From Escherichia coli (GTDB taxonomy: Bacteria; Pseudomonadota; Gammaproteobacteria; Enterobacterales; Enterobacteriaceae), in assembly GCA_902500055.1 (NCBI GenBank), contig GCA_902500055.1_4131.1: a stretch of 64,000 bases of DNA. One strand, 5' to 3'. Shown here piece after piece: positions 26,911 to 34,738 of the stretch (within the stretch, counting starts at the first letter, position 1; each line of letters starts with the position of its first letter). Made by a program: the position numbers and the translations under genes. Below the pieces are notes generated by a model. That model was not told the origin of the DNA. It made no database searches and worked only from the letters and a program-made list of their open reading frames with translations.

Positions 26911-26998
26911 TGTATTTTACTCTCCATGTTTAAATCCAATAGGTACAATCCTTGTACCATCAATGTTATTATAGCACCAAAAAGCAGTTTGTCCCACG

Positions 26999-27006
26999 TA
27001 TAAATA
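26999..27006 (+). promoter_or_regulatory. T4-type late promoter box TATAAATA upstream of the baseplate block
   Basis: Exact TATAAATA, 36 nt upstream of the ATG at 27042. Confidence 0.55.
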
Positions 27007-27041
27007 CATCAAATGTTCCCTTATTATGGAGAATCAAAAAG

Positions 27042-27773
27042 ATGATTGATCGTAGAATTCGATTACGACCTAAAGCCGCAGGTGCTAACTATGTATATGG
27101 TGATTTTGGAGATAGCTCCGAACCAACTCTACTTTCGTTTCTGCGTCCAACTAATGGGTTGGTTTGGACTGTAACACCAACAATTACTGAACAAAGGTCA
27201 ATTCAGTATGAAACACAGTCCCCTATACATACTAACAGTAACTATAACAACTATAAGAACACTACTAATACAGTTTTCACGATTCAGGGTGAATTTTATG
27301 CGAATACAGCAGCAGAAGCTATGTATGCGTTGGCATGTGTTCATTTTATACGTTCTGTTTCGTTGATGGATTTTGGTAGACAAGCTGCTTCGGCTAATAA
27401 CCCCGAACTCGCAATTGCAGGTGCACCACCACCAATCTTACTTCTAAGTGGATATGGTCGTTATACATATAATGATATTCCTGTTATTTTAAAATCTTAT
27501 AATTTTACTTACCCAAATGATGTTTCTTATATTCAAGTTCCGTTGAATAGTAGCGATAGTACTTTTAATTTATCCGACATGGATAGTAGAAAATTCTTCG
27601 AACAACTTAGAAGTACTGGATATATGAACCCACAAGATGAAGTTTGGGTTCCACAAAAAATCTCAGTTATGTTACAACTTGAAGAACAACCAACATCGGA
27701 TTATATGACTAAAACGTTCAACCTCAATGCATTCAAACGTGGTGAACTATTACGTAAAGGAGGATTCATTTAA
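27042..27773 (+). CDS. Hypothetical baseplate/tail protein (243 aa)
   Basis: First gene after the late promoter in the baseplate block; start at the Met with a GGAGA RBS. No motif recognised. Confidence 0.5.
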   Translation: MIDRRIRLRPKAAGANYVYGDFGDSSEPTLLSFLRPTNGLVWTVTPTITEQRSIQYETQSPIHTNSNYNNYKNTTNTVFTIQGEFYANTAAEAMYALACVHFIRSVSLMDFGRQAASANNPELAIAGAPPPILLLSGYGRYTYNDIPVILKSYNFTYPNDVSYIQVPLNSSDSTFNLSDMDSRKFFEQLRSTGYMNPQDEVWVPQKISVMLQLEEQPTSDYMTKTFNLNAFKRGELLRKGGFI

Positions 27774-30361: not shown

Positions 30362-33025
30362 ATGGCAGATACAAGTAAAAAGTATGCACAACAGCAGTTG
30401 GGTCGTTTTGACCCATCTTATCCGCAGTTAGCAACTGTTATGGATAACAGAGATCCAACTAAATCAGGAAAACTGAAAGTTTGGATACAAGGTTCTCAAA
30501 GTGATAAAAACTCAAAAGAATCATGGATAGAAGCATCTTACATGTCTCCTTTTGCTGGCAAAACACCAGGTATTCCAAGTGCTGATGCATATGGTCAATA
30601 TCCAAAAGGATATGGTTTTTGGGCAGTACCACCAGATGTAGGGTGTACAGTTGTTGTAATTTTTGCACAAGCCCGTACATTCCAAGCATATTGGATTGGT
30701 TGTGTATATGACCAGCGTATGAATACTATGGTTCCTGGTATGGCAACTGAAGTAAGTAATTATGGTGGAACTGATATGCCACTTCCTGTTACTGACTATG
30801 ATCGTAACACTATCACTACCGATATGCAAGACAAATATGCTAACGTTCCAATTATCGCAGGTCTTAAAAAGCAAAACCTTTTATATGACGAAGAAGCTGG
30901 GTTGGCGAATCGTAGTAGTACTCGTCAAACCACCAGTACTGTATATGGTATGTCTTCGCCACGTGGTAATAGTTTTATTATTGATGATGGATATACTGAA
31001 GAGGAATTAACAGCACCAACGTGGGATCAAGACCCAGATGGATATCAAGATACACAATTTAATAACCCAGTAAACGATACACGTGTTGGTTCTCGTAAAA
31101 ATGAAGGTGTCGTAATAAAAACACGTAGTGGTGCACAACTTCTTTTATCAGAAGCTACTGGTGATGTTCTTTTAATTAACCGTGATGGCACTGCACGTAT
31201 AAAATTCACTGGTGAAGGTGATATTGACATGCACTGTGATAAGAATATTAATATTCGTGCTGGTCAAGATATTAATATTACTGCTGGACGTTCATATAAT
31301 ATTGAAACCGGACAAGATTTCAATGCACGAGTTGGTGCAAATACTAAATTAGATCTAATTGGTGCTCTTGATGCAAAAGTTGGTGGTCAAGTTGTTGTTA
31401 ATTCTGGGGCAGACCTTCGTTTAGTTACTGCTGCATCATTACGTATGCAAAGTGGTAGCAGTACTGATATTACGGCTGGTTCAAATGCTTCTATTTCTGC
31501 CGCAACATCTGCAAACCTAATTGGATCATCATCAGCAATTATTAGTGGTGGTGGTCAAACATTAACAGTTAATAGTGGTGGTAATAGCGGTACTGCTGAA
31601 TTTACTGCACCAAACTTTAGAACACCATCTGCTGGTCTTAATGAACACATTCATGATATTGCTGCATGGGTTAACGCTGAAAATCATGGTAGTTATGTTG
31701 AACCACCAAGACAAGGTGGTGGAAGTGGTTCTAGTGAATCACCAGTACAACCACAACCAGCAAATGATGTATCACCAGAATTACCCGTAGCACAAGACAC
31801 TGAAGCTGTTCAGTTTGTTAACTATACATCAGAAACTGAACAAGTTCAATCACAAGATTTGATGACATCTGATCCTGGGATGACTGGATATAGTATTACA
31901 TATGAAGGTTTACATATGTTAATGCCATGTAGCGGTACTATTCGCCAATATGGTTATTGGGGGAAAGGTGTTCCAACACAAAGTGGTGGGAAGTCAGATC
32001 GTTCTGGATGGGAAATACAATGTAAAGGTGATGTAGTTGCACCAGATGGTGGTGTGGTAGTAATTACTAATGGTGCTCTTTTAATACAACATAAGTCTGG
32101 ATATAAATCTATTTTTTATAATATTCAATCTGATTTATTAAACAAAGATGTTGTTCAAAAAGGTCAAGTTGTTGGAAAAGCAAATGGTGTCATACAGTTT
32201 GAAATTCGTGTTACATCAGCAAATGTTCTTGGATTCAGTGGTTCTGTTGACCCAGGATTATTTTATGCTTCACAAACAGGAACAGGGTCTGATGCGGCGA
32301 ATAAAACATTAATTGGTGGTCAAGCAACTAATCAATCTGCTCCAAAAGCAGTTGTACAACCTTCAGTTGATAGTGATGAATTGGTAGTTACAACAAAAAT
32401 CAAAACGATAGGTACTGGATATTCTCAACGTGGTTCTCGTCATGTGCCTCGTAGGAGAAGAACACAGAGAAGTGGAGCTTCAACAACTCCGGTGGAGCAA
32501 CCTACCTATAATATTGGAAATGTTGATAAAACTGCAATCGATTGGAAAGTTGTTCCAGGTGATGCACAGTTTATTTCTGAATTAAAAGAATATGAAGGTA
32601 CATTACAATACCAACAAGCAAAAGGATATTATCGTAATGGTAAATTCTGGCGTTATTTGGATAGTCGTGGGTATCCAACTATTGGTTATGGTCACTTGAT
32701 TATTAGTGGTGAAAACTTTTCAGATGGAATAACTGAACAGCAAGCCAACGATATGTTAGTTCGTGATAGTAGTAAAGCAATTTATGATGCCAAATCAATT
32801 TATGCATCATATAACATGAAAACTCCTTATCTTGCTCAACAAGTACTATGCCAAATGGTATTTCAGATGGGTAAAGGTGGTGTATTGAAATTTAAAACTA
32901 TGTTATCAGAAATGGCAAAAGGTAATTACAAACAAGCAGCGGCACAAATCCGTAATTCTGCTTGGTATCGCCAAACTACACGCCGTGCGGAGTTAATGGC
33001 TCGTCGTTTGGAGGCATGTCAATAA
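30362..33025 (+). CDS. gp5: Baseplate central spike with C-terminal lysozyme domain (gp5-like)
   Basis: 887 aa. Middle has a beta-helix-like repetitive region (IRAGQDINITAGRSYNIETGQDFNARVGANTKLDLIG...). C-terminal 150 aa is a T4-lysozyme-like GH24 domain (EGT..YQ, LDSRGYPTIGYGH, MVFQMG, WYRQTTRRAE) preceded by a basic HVPRRRRTQR linker. Confidence 0.8.
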   Translation: MADTSKKYAQQQLGRFDPSYPQLATVMDNRDPTKSGKLKVWIQGSQSDKNSKESWIEASYMSPFAGKTPGIPSADAYGQYPKGYGFWAVPPDVGCTVVVIFAQARTFQAYWIGCVYDQRMNTMVPGMATEVSNYGGTDMPLPVTDYDRNTITTDMQDKYANVPIIAGLKKQNLLYDEEAGLANRSSTRQTTSTVYGMSSPRGNSFIIDDGYTEEELTAPTWDQDPDGYQDTQFNNPVNDTRVGSRKNEGVVIKTRSGAQLLLSEATGDVLLINRDGTARIKFTGEGDIDMHCDKNINIRAGQDINITAGRSYNIETGQDFNARVGANTKLDLIGALDAKVGGQVVVNSGADLRLVTAASLRMQSGSSTDITAGSNASISAATSANLIGSSSAIISGGGQTLTVNSGGNSGTAEFTAPNFRTPSAGLNEHIHDIAAWVNAENHGSYVEPPRQGGGSGSSESPVQPQPANDVSPELPVAQDTEAVQFVNYTSETEQVQSQDLMTSDPGMTGYSITYEGLHMLMPCSGTIRQYGYWGKGVPTQSGGKSDRSGWEIQCKGDVVAPDGGVVVITNGALLIQHKSGYKSIFYNIQSDLLNKDVVQKGQVVGKANGVIQFEIRVTSANVLGFSGSVDPGLFYASQTGTGSDAANKTLIGGQATNQSAPKAVVQPSVDSDELVVTTKIKTIGTGYSQRGSRHVPRRRRTQRSGASTTPVEQPTYNIGNVDKTAIDWKVVPGDAQFISELKEYEGTLQYQQAKGYYRNGKFWRYLDSRGYPTIGYGHLIISGENFSDGITEQQANDMLVRDSSKAIYDAKSIYASYNMKTPYLAQQVLCQMVFQMGKGGVLKFKTMLSEMAKGNYKQAAAQIRNSAWYRQTTRRAELMARRLEACQ

Positions 33026-33037
33026 ATATTTTAGCAC

Positions 33038-33045
33038 TATAAATA
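33038..33045 (+). promoter_or_regulatory. T4-type late promoter box TATAAATA upstream of the endolysin gene
   Basis: Exact TATAAATA, 17 nt upstream of the ATG at 33062. Confidence 0.5.
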
Positions 33046-33061
33046 AAACGAGGATATCTTT

Positions 33062-33550
33062 ATGAGTAAATGGGAAATTAAAAATACAGATGAGCAATTT
33101 TTTAAGGAAATTAAAGAATTTGAAGGAACTATTGCTTATCAGAAAAAACTTGGTTATTTTAAAAATGATAAGTTTTGGGTATATAAAGACAGTTTAGGTC
33201 TTGATACTATTGGTTATGGTCATCTAGTTCTTCCTGGTGAAAATTTCAAGAATGGTTTGACCGAAGCTCAAGCTGACCAACTTCTTCTCAAAGATGCTCA
33301 AACTGCGTACAATGATGCAAAATCAATTTATGAACAATTCGGTATGACTGCACCAGTACAGGTACAACGTGTATTATGGTTAATGGTATTCCAAATGGGA
33401 AAAACCAAAGTTTTGAAATTTAAAAAAGCAATGACCGCATTAGGTAAAGCTGATTACAAAACTGCTGGTAAAGAATTGCGTGATAGTACATGGTATAAAC
33501 AAACCACTTCACGAGCGGAAAAGATGGCACGTATCGTTGAATCCGTATAA
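33062..33550 (+). CDS. Endolysin, T4-lysozyme-like (GH24 muramidase)
   Basis: 162 aa; catalytic-region motifs EFEGT..YQ, YKDSLGLDTIGYGH, MVFQMG, WYKQTTSRAE match T4 lysozyme (E11, D20, T26 equivalents present). Confidence 0.9.
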   Translation: MSKWEIKNTDEQFFKEIKEFEGTIAYQKKLGYFKNDKFWVYKDSLGLDTIGYGHLVLPGENFKNGLTEAQADQLLLKDAQTAYNDAKSIYEQFGMTAPVQVQRVLWLMVFQMGKTKVLKFKKAMTALGKADYKTAGKELRDSTWYKQTTSRAEKMARIVESV

Positions 33551-33565
33551 TAAAGGAAATAGACA

Positions 33566-33961
33566 ATGGCAGTTGTTTTTAAAGGGTTTTCTACCCCTGT
33601 AGTTGGTAGAACTGAAACATTGTATGATAGTGAATTGGTTCGCCAAGATTTAATGAATCATTTCAATACAAAAAAAGGTGAACGAGCATTTGATGCTGAC
33701 TATGGGTTTATTGCATGGGATTTGCTATTTGAATTGGAAGGTTATAATACTATCAACCTTTTAGAAGCAGATGCCCGTAGAATAATTAGCTTAGACCCAC
33801 GTTTAAATCTTAAAAAATTACAAATTTCAAGAATAGAATATGGATACCAAATGAATATTGTATTACAGTACGTAGTATTGGACACATTAGAAGAACTTAC
33901 TATAGTATTTGATGCAAGAAGTAATAATCGAATGGCAACATATTCAGTTTCGTCTTTATAA
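33566..33961 (+). CDS. gp25: Baseplate wedge protein gp25-like (GPW family)
   Basis: 131 aa (T4 gp25 is 132 aa). FNTKKGERAFDADYGF matches gp25 TRKGSRPFDPEFG; downstream ISLDPRL...VLQYVVLD fits the gp25 C-terminal pattern. Confidence 0.7.
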   Translation: MAVVFKGFSTPVVGRTETLYDSELVRQDLMNHFNTKKGERAFDADYGFIAWDLLFELEGYNTINLLEADARRIISLDPRLNLKKLQISRIEYGYQMNIVLQYVVLDTLEELTIVFDARSNNRMATYSVSSL

Positions 33962-33968
33962 TTATAAA

Positions 33969-33996
33969 AGCACTCTTCGGAGTGCTTTTCTTTTTG
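33969..33996 (+). terminator. Rho-independent terminator after gp25
   Basis: AGCACTC-TTCG-GAGTGCT hairpin followed by TTTTCTTTTT. Confidence 0.65.
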
Positions 33997-34030: not shown

Positions 34031-34738
34031 ATGAAAAGATATTATGGTTTCATTTATCAATGGGAAGATTGTTCCAATGGTATAAAATATATAGGTTCTC
34101 ATTATGGAACAACTGATGACAAGTACGTGTCTTCTAATATTATAGTTAATCGCATTTATAAGAGTAGACCCCTTGATTTATCAAGAGTCGTTTTGGAATA
34201 TATTATTGTTAATGATAAGAATTTTTTATTGGAAAGAGAACAAAAATACTTAGATTTAATACTTCCGTCTGAATTGTATACTAGTACCAATAGAAAAAAC
34301 AAAACCGTAAAATATTACAACATGAAAAAGAATGCATGTGGTGGTAACGGTGGTATTGGAAGTAATGGTATATTGAAAAATAAAATAAAATATTTTAATA
34401 AAAATACTTTAGAACAGAAATTCTTTCATTATAATGATGACATATCGGATGATTGGATTAAAGGTGTACCCCCATCTAAGGTTAGTTGTTCAGGTAGTAT
34501 TTGGTATCTAAATATACATACTGGAGAAAATAAAAGATTTAGACATAACCCTGGTATAGATTGGATTGAAGGAAAACGCAATACTTCAACAACACCAAAA
34601 AAGGTAAGCACACCATATGGGATTTTCGAAAGTGCATCTGAATGTAGTAGACAAACTGGAATAAAACAAGGAACTGTATCATTTAGGTGTCGTTCCAAAT
34701 CAACTAATATGACAAATTGGTTTTATATAGAGGAATAA
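34031..34738 (+). CDS. GIY-YIG homing endonuclease (Seg/I-TevI-like) inserted between gp25 and gp6-like genes
   Basis: N-terminal YYGFIYQWEDCSNGIKYIGSH (GIY...YIG motif); C-terminal SECSRQTGIKQGTVSFRCRSKS resembles a NUMOD/helix-turn-helix DNA-binding tail. Confidence 0.8.
   Translation: MKRYYGFIYQWEDCSNGIKYIGSHYGTTDDKYVSSNIIVNRIYKSRPLDLSRVVLEYIIVNDKNFLLEREQKYLDLILPSELYTSTNRKNKTVKYYNMKKNACGGNGGIGSNGILKNKIKYFNKNTLEQKFFHYNDDISDDWIKGVPPSKVSCSGSIWYLNIHTGENKRFRHNPGIDWIEGKRNTSTTPKKVSTPYGIFESASECSRQTGIKQGTVSFRCRSKSTNMTNWFYIEE

Follow-up and report, generated by a model that had tools for sequence, protein, structure and literature searches.

This locus raises the question of whether a phage tail spike that ends in a lysozyme and a second lysozyme encoded directly behind it are true paralogues, and how the two enzymes divide their work. 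The window (the whole stretch of DNA analysed, 64,000 nucleotides) belongs to an Asteriusvirus jumbo coliphage. It shares 98% identity with phAPEC6, PBECO4 and 121Q, and the spike gene is 98.2% identical to that of phAPEC6 at the nucleotide level. The 887-aa spike is the orthologue of phAPEC6 gp241, RaK2 gp078 and CBB_240, and the free lysozyme is that of phAPEC6 gp242, RaK2 gp073, CBB_239 and LysUE1. The gene order is identical in these phages, and the spike is 70-99.8% identical in protein sequence to its orthologues in them, with nothing essential different.

The odd domain order and the similar adjoining lysozyme had already been reported in the RaK2 (2013) and CBB (2017) genome papers. 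The former describes a "very unusual domain composition" of the spike, with the lysozyme at the C-terminus and two lysozyme domains that are 66% similar, and the latter a domain order unlike that of T4 gp5. The arrangement is real, ordinary and known beforehand. The genes are 98% identical to those of published phages, and both their odd architecture and their resemblance to each other were on record in those papers, which leaves little value as a discovery; what we add is modest anatomical detail. New are the HxH apex, the dead LytM/M23-fold domain, the non-conservation of an RRRR run and the old age of the spike/free pair. Indeed, the flanks of the beta-helix, which had "no apparent database matches" in the RaK2, CBB and phAPEC6 papers, are here an OB fold, an HxH apex and a degenerate LytM domain. 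Our analysis establishes the identity and order of the domains, which catalytic residues are intact or absent, the paralogy and synteny of the two genes and the age of the pair.

Domain order of the spike

The spike gene and its parts are located as follows.

30362..33025, plus strand: gene of the central baseplate spike / tail lysozyme (ORF, 887 aa, 95.9 kDa)
30428..30709, plus strand: N-terminal OB-fold domain (aa 23-116, PF04717), which docks the spike onto the hub/tube
31109..31636, plus strand: triple-stranded beta-helix region (about aa 250-425; PF10106 DUF2345 and VgrG profile matches)
31646..31654, plus strand: HxH motif H429-I-H431, the predicted metal-binding histidine cage of the apex
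31655..31891, plus strand: linker 1 (aa 432-510), acidic, polar and predicted to be disordered (pLDDT 38-59)
31892..32341, plus strand: degenerate LytM / peptidase-M23-fold domain (aa 511-660), without zinc-ligand and catalytic residues
32342..32527, plus strand: linker 2 (aa 661-722), predicted to be disordered (pLDDT 36-52)
32528..33022, plus strand: C-terminal GH24 (T4-type) muramidase domain (aa 723-887)

The 887-aa protein is a central spike of the gp5/VgrG type. PF04717 (Phage_base_V) is matched with 29.8 bits (Pfam cut-off 23.8), which gives the OB fold of central spikes, and PF10106 (DUF2345, the VgrG-type beta-helix) is matched at aa 278-329 with 34.7 bits (cut-off 30.7). The spike family profile aligned with VgrG beta-helices over query positions 251-432 (2.7e-6), and also with residues 446-553 of a T4-like gp5. 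The structure prediction that the initial annotation had proposed agrees with this topology: an AF2 model of aa 1-450 (pLDDT 83.7) found significant Foldseek matches only among central spikes of contractile systems, the best being VgrGs (1.1e-8), together with eCIS, P1, phiKZ, T4 gp5 and R2 pyocin spikes. The linkers are predicted to be disordered and flank two confidently predicted domains. Pfam, profile and Foldseek results thus all place the protein, by its beta-helical needle and overall fold, in the gp5/VgrG/gpV class, and it presumably forms a trimer. Published mass spectrometry has found the spike in phAPEC6, CBB and Eneladusvirus particles.

The initial annotation had also described a gp5-like spike whose extreme C-terminus is a GH24 lysozyme. 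This description holds, as both ORFs lie exactly at the coordinates given and Phage_lysozyme covers aa 765-882 of 887 in the spike. PF00959 is matched with 44.3 bits (Pfam cut-off 22.3) and the domain has the T4-lysozyme fold. A loss of the catalytic Glu/Asp, which would have argued for a non-enzymatic role, is not seen: E745, D767 and T773 are present, and the Glu/Asp pair is kept in 82/82 spike orthologues. From its residues the domain is predicted to be an intact and active muramidase.

T4 gp5 is likewise a central spike with an OB fold, a GH24 domain and a beta-helix, and the same genome carries a free GH24 paralogue, since gp5 and the gene e endolysin are paralogues. In T4 gp5, however, the OB fold is followed first by the lysozyme and then by the helix, and another polypeptide, the PAAR protein gp5.4, forms the tip. 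In our spike the order is OB fold, helix, lysozyme; the lysozyme comes after the helix and the HxH apex, an extra LytM-like domain is present, and the free paralogue is adjacent whereas that of T4 is distant. The order claimed to differ from T4 is confirmed by the positions, with the helix at about 251-432 and the lysozyme at 759-879 in our spike, compared with the lysozyme at 185-327 and the beta-helix at 446-553 in the T4-like gp5 9f4a_BB.

Neither histidine of the HxH motif (H429, H431) varies among 72 homologues of 37-93% identity, and the two may form a metal cage at the apex of the spike. HxH is a known identifier of spike apex domains (10.1101/2023.02.25.529910), although it sits mid-chain here (aa 429-431), whereas in the apex-type spikes that define the class it lies close to the C-terminus and forms an Fe histidine cage. 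P2 gpV, phi92 gp138 and the R-pyocin spike also consist of an OB fold and a beta-helix with a conserved HxH straight after the helix. Those chains end about 12 residues past the motif, while ours has 456 more.

A comparable plan is that of the "evolved" VgrGs of the T6SS, spikes that end in an effector domain, such as the peptidoglycan hydrolase of V. cholerae VgrG-3. There, too, contraction delivers an enzyme that the spike bears behind its beta-helix. The phage protein differs in that it has no gp27-like N-terminal half, in its HxH apex in place of a PAAR cap, and in its cargo, which is LytM-like plus GH24. It is useful as an illustration of how a phage spike, in the style of an evolved VgrG, can bear enzymatic cargo beyond the apex.

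The LytM-like domain between apex and lysozyme is conserved and has the M23 fold, with EnvC as its best structural match; the copy in the window scores 22.5, under the Pfam cut-off of 28.7. In 72/72 homologues the zinc ligands HxxxD and HxH and the catalytic His of M23 are replaced by GW.IQ, Y[NG]I and [VIL]x[QLK]FEIR, so that the residues of an active M23 peptidase are missing and the domain, judged by its sequence, cannot be a peptidase. Most likely it is a peptidoglycan- or protein-binding or regulatory module. A degenerate LytM domain is what it has in common with EnvC, NlpD, DipM and SpoIIQ, which are regulators, but here this domain sits inside a virion protein, and the accessory parts of EnvC and NlpD (coiled coil, LysM, lipoprotein signal) were not seen in the spike sequence. 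The tail-tip enzyme gp13 of phi29 also unites a lysozyme with M23; its M23, however, is an active zinc endopeptidase and its domain order is reversed. One may speculate that the tethered dead domain works as an EnvC-like periplasmic regulator, which turns on the host amidases AmiA/B/C at the site of penetration or gates a GH24 partner, be it the spike's own domain or the free paralogue. The sacculus would then be breached through hijacked or controlled hydrolase activation and not by lysozyme action alone. We regard this as highly doubtful. Neither the HxH apex nor the LytM-like domain had been mentioned in the initial annotation.

The free lysozyme and its neighbours

The region downstream of the spike gene contains the following features.

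33026..33061, plus strand: 36-bp spacer from spike to free lysozyme, with three in-frame stops
33038-33045, plus strand: spacer element TATAAATA
33050-33054, plus strand: spacer element GAGGA
33062..33550, plus strand: free-standing soluble GH24 lysozyme (ORF, PF00959; 162 aa, 18.7 kDa, pI 9.3)
33566..33961, plus strand: gp25-like baseplate wedge gene (PF04965, 35.1 bits)
33966..33989, plus strand: terminator-like hairpin closing the spike/lysozyme/gp25 unit (GC-rich 10-bp stem, then a T run)

Phage_lysozyme is the sole Pfam domain of the free enzyme (37 bits, cut-off 22.3). For the annotation as a whole, NCBIfam added nothing of use. E21, D43 and T49 are intact, Glu, Asp and Thr are kept in 78/78 orthologues, and the protein has no hydrophobic, transmembrane or signal segment (maximum Kyte-Doolittle(19) 0.89). 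The orthologue from UE-S1 is muralytic in vitro and lyses cells in the presence of EDTA (PMC12805682). With these properties the free copy is a soluble muralytic enzyme without an export signal, as expected of a canonical holin-dependent endolysin.

The initial annotation had indeed called this gene an endolysin. The stand-alone, intact GH24 enzyme stands, but its role in lysis is insecure: a third GH24 paralogue with a transmembrane segment and LysM, encoded outside the window and homologous to phAPEC6 gp293, has been proposed as the endolysin in the literature, the free gene lies in a baseplate operon, and the virion proteomes conflict. Within the window we found no third GH24 copy. The genes next to the free lysozyme belong to the baseplate, with no holin or spanin among them. 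The gp25-like gene always comes directly after the free lysozyme gene and, in phages that lack the latter, directly after the spike gene. No terminator was found between spike, free lysozyme and gp25, and the hairpin behind gp25 is the same element that is annotated "terminator" in phage G17.

Could the free lysozyme be a low-copy component of the baseplate or tail, or an assembly partner, possibly held by the LytM-like domain and acting together with the spike at infection, and not an endolysin at all? Its position between spike and gp25 is kept across genera, nothing in the way of a terminator parts it from its neighbours, degenerate LytM domains such as those of EnvC, DipM and SpoIIQ typically bind partners, and the proposed endolysin is a different gene. 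Furthermore, one specific peptide of the free copy was reported in purified virions of three Eneladusvirus phages. A single peptide could, however, be carry-over from the lysate; the virion proteome lists of phAPEC6 and CBB do not include the free copy, and the RaK2 paper omits it among the structural proteins. The protein is also soluble and active alone in vitro. Finally, the LytM-like domain is independent of the free lysozyme, because the free gene has been lost in at least 5 lineages whose spikes retain that domain. We therefore consider a virion role unlikely. Most probably the free enzyme acts as a soluble muramidase at lysis, alongside the third, membrane-anchored GH24 protein. For enzybiotic work on LysUE1-type lysozymes it is useful to note that the enzyme may not be the lysis endolysin of the phage.

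Two features of the spacer were followed up. The element TATAAATA was considered as a T4-type late promoter; it is not enriched (6 found versus 10.6 expected in the window), and we rejected this reading because the spacing would place the transcription start inside the Shine-Dalgarno sequence. A read-through fusion of the two ORFs was dismissed as well, since they share the same frame, yet three stop codons intervene.

Linkers and the question of processing

T4 gp5 is a processed protein, cut between lysozyme and beta-helix. The basic linker of our spike had been put forward as a candidate processing site, and the two elements of linker 2 that bear on this claim are the following.

32387-32449, plus strand: conserved motif ELVV.T.V.SIGSGYSQRGSR.VP (aa 676-696)
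32441-32470, plus strand: basic run HVPRRRRTQR (aa 694-703)

The run could mark a maturation cleavage that frees the lysozyme domain, as it is predicted to be disordered and accessible, and it adjoins a strongly conserved motif in which G691 is invariant and S692 and P696 reach 90% conservation or more in the 72 homologues. The sequence beyond P696, however, is not conserved, and a run of at least four Lys/Arg occurs in only 5/72 homologues, the median net charge of linker 2 being +2 to +3. In addition, the virion proteome papers report no spike fragment, and the phAPEC6 and Eneladusvirus tables list the spike at its full predicted mass only. Nothing supports cleavage at the RRRR run, and we hold a maturation site there to be quite unlikely. 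Linker 1 is of the opposite character: in the same 72 homologues its median net charge is -10 (range -15 to -4), and Lys and Arg make up about 1% of its residues.

Paralogy and age of the two lysozymes

The pairwise alignment suggested in the initial annotation joins spike residues 728-885 to residues 4-161 of the free enzyme with 52% identity, 70% positives and no gaps (BLASTP, E=5e-57), well beyond what chance would give. The shared motifs named there are all found, namely EYEGT/EFEGT, PTIGYGH/DTIGYGH, MVFQMGK, VLKFK and WYRQTTRRAE/WYKQTTSRAE, each of them in both copies. Neighbour-joining trees of the lysozyme alignment (163 columns) left the deep nodes unresolved, with bootstraps of at most 40% for the key groupings. 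For this reason we adopted quartet counts, group distances and profile comparisons, which are phenetic and moderately decisive. In quartets rooted with T4-type enzymes, 78-87% join the free and spike copies against their nearest other relatives, the endolysins of prophages, so that the two are closer to each other than to unrelated GH24 enzymes. The free and spike groups are reciprocally nearest (mean Kimura distance 0.82), and the profile-profile score is 501 between them compared with 417 for the prophage endolysins. The margin over the latter is small in consensus identity (0.62 for free-spike versus 0.56). An ordered N-terminal W...D extension is present only in the spike-borne and free copies, and the two genes lie side by side in at least 4 genera. 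These comparisons support the reading that the two lysozymes are specific paralogues and not mere co-members of GH24.

The free gene could instead have come in on its own, from an endolysin of the prophage type within this GH24 subfamily, and have landed beside the spike. Prophage enzymes of Pantoea, Erwinia and Serratia, 145-150 aa long, show 44-52% identity to the free copy, much as the spike domain does with its 52%; they share the 13-aa Glu-Asp insertion, and they resemble the free copy more than they do the spike domain (consensus identity 0.56 versus 0.49), while the unresolved deep nodes would also accommodate such an origin. We judge it very improbable, because quartets, group distances and profile scores unite free and spike copies, BLAST gives up to 185 bits for spike domains and at most 147 for prophage enzymes, the W...D extension and the MVFQMGK and QTT.RAE states are common only to the free copy and the spike domains, and the free gene adjoins the spike in every genome that has it.

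For specific paralogues, the initial annotation had suggested an in-situ duplication or fusion. The adjacent, specific paralogues fit this suggestion, but the event is ancient and not recent: spike and free genes share 58.6% nucleotide identity and 47.5% at third positions, which are saturated. Free copies occur in both deep clades of the phage tree and were lost in at least 5 sampled lineages. As the pair is this old, is present in both deep clades and was lost repeatedly, neither direction, from endolysin to spike or from spike to free gene, is favoured. A birth of the free gene from the 3' end of the spike gene, considered when the first four divergent contigs gave outgroups without a free gene, was abandoned after further sampling and the phage tree had placed free copies in both deep clades.

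Taken together, we consider it likely that the locus encodes an evolved-VgrG-style spike with tethered cargo, as in RaK2-like phages, and an old paralogous free lysozyme that serves lysis. As the central spike of a jumbo myophage of the RaK2-like kind (Asteriusvirus), the protein would form a trimer that pierces the membrane, planned like an evolved VgrG and not like T4 gp5, and running from OB fold, beta-helix and HxH apex through an acidic disordered linker, a dead LytM fold and a basic disordered linker to an intact GH24 domain. Contraction of the sheath would drive the needle through the outer membrane and carry three tethered copies of LytM-like domain and lysozyme into the periplasm; we infer this delivery from the architecture. 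There the GH24 domain of the spike would cut glycan strands locally and thereby allow the tail tube to pass. The free 162-aa enzyme and the spike would share one late baseplate transcription unit. The pair would stem from a single old duplication or fusion at this locus, or from a few of them, dating back about as far as the fused architecture, after which each copy would have diverged on its own.

Gene conversion between the copies was considered too and rejected, since identity within the own genome is 0.513 compared with 0.498 between genomes (p=0.11). In clade II the quartets lean slightly, with 57-58%, towards independent duplication or gene conversion.

A spike with a C-terminal lysozyme and its neighbour

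The initial annotation described a spike with a C-terminal lysozyme next to a paralogous free endolysin, and this arrangement is real and was rightly observed. Two ORFs on the same strand fill exactly the interval 30362-33550 it had given.

30362-33025, + strand, ORF A, the spike, 887 aa
ORF A aa 23-116, Phage_base_V, OB fold (Pfam, above gathering score)
ORF A aa 278-329, DUF2345, VgrG-type beta-helix (Pfam, above gathering score)
ORF A aa 765-882, Phage_lysozyme (Pfam, above gathering score)
33062-33550, + strand, ORF B, the free lysozyme, 162 aa

Phage_lysozyme is the sole Pfam domain of ORF B. In ORF A the lysozyme maps 3' of the helix, while on the solved T4-like gp5 (9f4a) it lies before the helix; the Pfam positions and this mapping confirm a C-terminal location unlike that of T4 gp5. 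All the sequence motifs cited initially were found, with HVPRRRRTQR at aa 694-703. Pairwise alignment, the check proposed for the relatedness of the two enzymes, gave 52% identity, 70% positives and 0 gaps (E=5e-57) between ORF A (728-885) and ORF B (4-161). Loss of the catalytic Glu/Asp from the spike copy was to argue for a non-enzymatic role; both copies retain the Glu/Asp/Thr of T4 lysozyme.

The region shares 98.2% DNA identity with Escherichia phage phAPEC6 and 96.7-98% with PBECO4, 121Q, G17, UB and others, jumbo myophages of ~350 kb (genus Asteriusvirus). The two ORFs correspond to gp241 (A) and gp242 (B) of phAPEC6. The RaK2 genome paper (2013) ascribed to the 886-aa ORF078 "a very unusual domain composition" with a C-terminal lysozyme, found the lysozyme domains of ORF073 and ORF078 66% similar, and listed a third lysozyme, ORF029 (PMC3622015). 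For CBB (2017), the domain order of CBB_240 was reported to be unlike T4 gp5, and CBB_239 to be a T4-type lysozyme; the proposed endolysin was another gene (CBB_187 / 121Q gp532 / RaK2 gp506), with a TM segment, a LysM-like domain and a lysozyme domain (PMC5259590). In UE-S1 the orthologue of ORF B is LysUE1 (162 aa, MSKWEIK...), which has been cloned and shows muralytic activity with EDTA (PMC12805682). Since these papers describe the genes, the core of the finding is already in the literature, and the arrangement is known from published RaK2-like jumbo phages. What we add is a predicted mid-chain HxH apex, an apparently dead LytM domain, the lack of conservation of the Arg run and an old, patchy history of the pair. 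Annotation of both genes is inconsistent across GenBank records.

Apart from the spike domains, ORF B is closest to GH24 proteins of 145-150 aa from prophage tail/lysis regions of enterobacterial genomes (44-52% identity). Because this is about the 52% of the spike domain, the refutation named initially, that the two domains are no closer to each other than to unrelated GH24 enzymes, needed testing. With ORF B as query, BLAST gave up to 185 bits for spike domains vs up to 147 for prophage enzymes. Free and spike copies grouped in 78-87% of quartets rooted on T4-type enzymes, and were reciprocally nearest (distance 0.82 vs at least 0.93 to any other group). Profile-profile score (501 vs 417) and consensus identity (0.62 vs 0.56) likewise placed them closer to each other than to the prophage enzymes. 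An ordered N-terminal W...D extension is common to spike and free copies only, and MVFQMGK and QTT.RAE are common to crown spikes and free copies. NJ bootstraps for the lysozyme tree are weak, and the third paralogue of these phages is 36% identical to ORF B. These comparisons speak against the refutation and support a specific paralogy, by a modest margin.

Outside the jumbo phages, the free lysozyme is closest to prophage endolysins. One Serratia marcescens chromosome (CP132301) carries two identical copies, each with a siphovirus tail-tip gene before it and a SegE-like GIY-YIG gene after it.

Spike apex, LytM-like domain and linkers

Of 86 full-length homologues gathered (36-93% identity), we aligned 72. 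The AF2 model of spike aa 1-450 (pLDDT 83.7) matched only central spikes, T6SS VgrG being the best given (1e-8), with eCIS/PVC/AFP spikes, P1, phiKZ, phi812, T4 gp5 and R2 pyocin among the others; the sequence profile matches VgrG helices across aa 251-432. H429 and H431 are invariant among the 72. In the P2 apex study, HxH is the single universally conserved spike feature and the mark of the Fe-binding apex (10.1101/2023.02.25.529910). The P2 gpV chain, however, stops 12 residues past HxH, whereas 456 residues are still to come in ORF A. These were modelled (aa 431-887) as two confident domains, aa ~511-660 and ~721-887 (pLDDT >90), with low-confidence linkers at aa 432-510 and 661-720. In its working the spike most resembles an evolved VgrG, or an apex spike to which peptidoglycan-hydrolase cargo is tethered; the arrangement is not of the T4 gp5 type.

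For the middle domain, the window copy alone scores 22.5 bits against PF01551, below the cut-off of 28.7, but 21 of 23 family members match (best 5.6e-11), and among PDB entries the family profile picks up LasA, SpoIIQ, DipM, zoocin A and EnvC. Neither the HxxxD and HxH zinc ligands nor the catalytic His occur in the LytM-like domain of any aligned sequence (0/72); the sites read GW(invariant).IQ, Y-N/G-I and [VIL]x[QLK]FEIR instead. Lysostaphin and LytM marker sequences served as the reference in this comparison. The domain is strongly conserved (12 invariant positions) and confined to spikes of about 870-980 aa in an exhaustive phmmer search of 1.84 billion representatives. Judged by its residues, this LytM domain is non-catalytic, and it belongs to this spike family alone; our literature search found no paper describing it.

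Linker 1 (window 31655-31891) is acidic throughout the family (median net charge -10, almost no Lys/Arg), while linker 2 (32342-32527) is mildly basic and the lysozyme domain basic. Such conserved opposite charges could allow electrostatic fold-back or autoinhibition. The basic region, predicted to be disordered, had been proposed as a candidate processing site; the virion proteome papers report neither fragment sizes nor peptide positions. Four or more Lys/Arg in a row occur in just 5/72 homologues, so the Arg run itself is no conserved signal; the conserved element is ELVV.T.V.SIGSGYSQRGSR.VP, 5' of the run, with G691 invariant.

The Thr26 equivalent (spike T773, window 32678-32680) is Thr in 78/78 free copies; of 82 crown-clade spike domains, 20 have Asp, 4 Ser and 1 Asn at this position, which hints that the chemistry of some virion-borne copies is relaxed or altered. 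In the most divergent spike (P0086, L011 400-3153) the catalytic Glu and Asp of the lysozyme domain are gone, the three positions being D, R and V. The free gene is also missing from its contig, and this phage may be without active lysozyme at the spike locus.

Role and history of the free lysozyme

The free copy is soluble, with TM and signal segments absent, and basic (pI 9.3); Glu/Asp/Thr are retained in 78/78 orthologues. No terminator was found in the stretch from spike through lysozyme to gp25, and a strong hairpin lies just past gp25, so the free lysozyme is probably a late co-transcribed gene. The third GH24 paralogue, phAPEC6 gp293 (L015 26101-27027, - strand, outside the window; 308 aa, N-terminal TM, LysM and GH24), is the likely signal-anchored endolysin of these phages. 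We favour a soluble lysis-time muramidase for the free copy. It may also have a trace virion role: one protein-specific peptide (9% coverage) was present in virion MS of each of three Eneladusvirus phages, although the protein is not listed in phAPEC6 or CBB virion MS and not mentioned among RaK2 structural proteins.

The two lysozymes share 58.6% nucleotide identity (47.5% at third codon positions). Within-genome identity (0.513) is not above between-genome identity (0.498, p=0.11), and thus ongoing gene conversion is not seen. The order spike, free lysozyme, gp25, wedge is kept in Asteriusvirus, Mimasvirus, Eneladusvirus and related Salmonella phages; in RaK2 four small ORFs are inserted 3' of the spike. 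Among divergent metagenomic relatives, the free gene adjoins the spikes P0077, P0078 and P0081 and the one at L016, and is missing at the spike locus of P0076, P0079, P0080, P0084 and P0086. The 477-aa spike of PA5oct-like phages bears no cargo, and no lysozyme gene lies alongside it. A spike tree built without the lysozyme part (713 columns) gave two well-supported clades (0.99, 0.86). As each holds carriers and non-carriers, the pair dates back about as far as the fused architecture does, and the free gene has been lost several times since. In clade II the quartets are split between one old duplication (37-41%) and repeated duplication or conversion (57-58%), and either may have happened.

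Of the proposed in-situ duplication or fusion, specific adjacent paralogy stands, by that modest margin, and the signs of its direction point both ways. Every more distant relative is a free enzyme, in favour of a step from free to fused; a duplicated 3' end of the spike gene would account for the spike-type N-terminal extension seen in ORF B.

Flanking genes and a promoter-like motif

26952-27773, + strand, mechanical ORF with a TTG start at 26952
26999-27006, TATAAATA, T4 late-promoter consensus, 35 nt upstream of the first baseplate-cluster gene (ATG 27042)
33038-33045, TATAAATA, T4 late-promoter consensus, 16 nt upstream of the free lysozyme ATG
34031-34738, + strand, GIY-YIG / I-TevI-like homing endonuclease, 235 aa, in the spacer between the gp25-like and wedge genes, just past the terminator hairpin

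The motif is not enriched overall in the window (6 observed vs 10.6 expected). A gp55-like late sigma factor is encoded by the window's phage. The phAPEC6 gp238 homologue has 243 aa, which puts the true start of the baseplate-cluster gene probably at ATG 27042 rather than TTG 26952. The 235-aa endonuclease is missing from phAPEC6, PBECO4 and G17, and only phage TH47 carries it (87% nt identity); 121Q and JP4 have a different HNH endonuclease in the same spacer. With different endonucleases at one site, the gp25-wedge spacer looks like a homing-endonuclease insertion hotspot.
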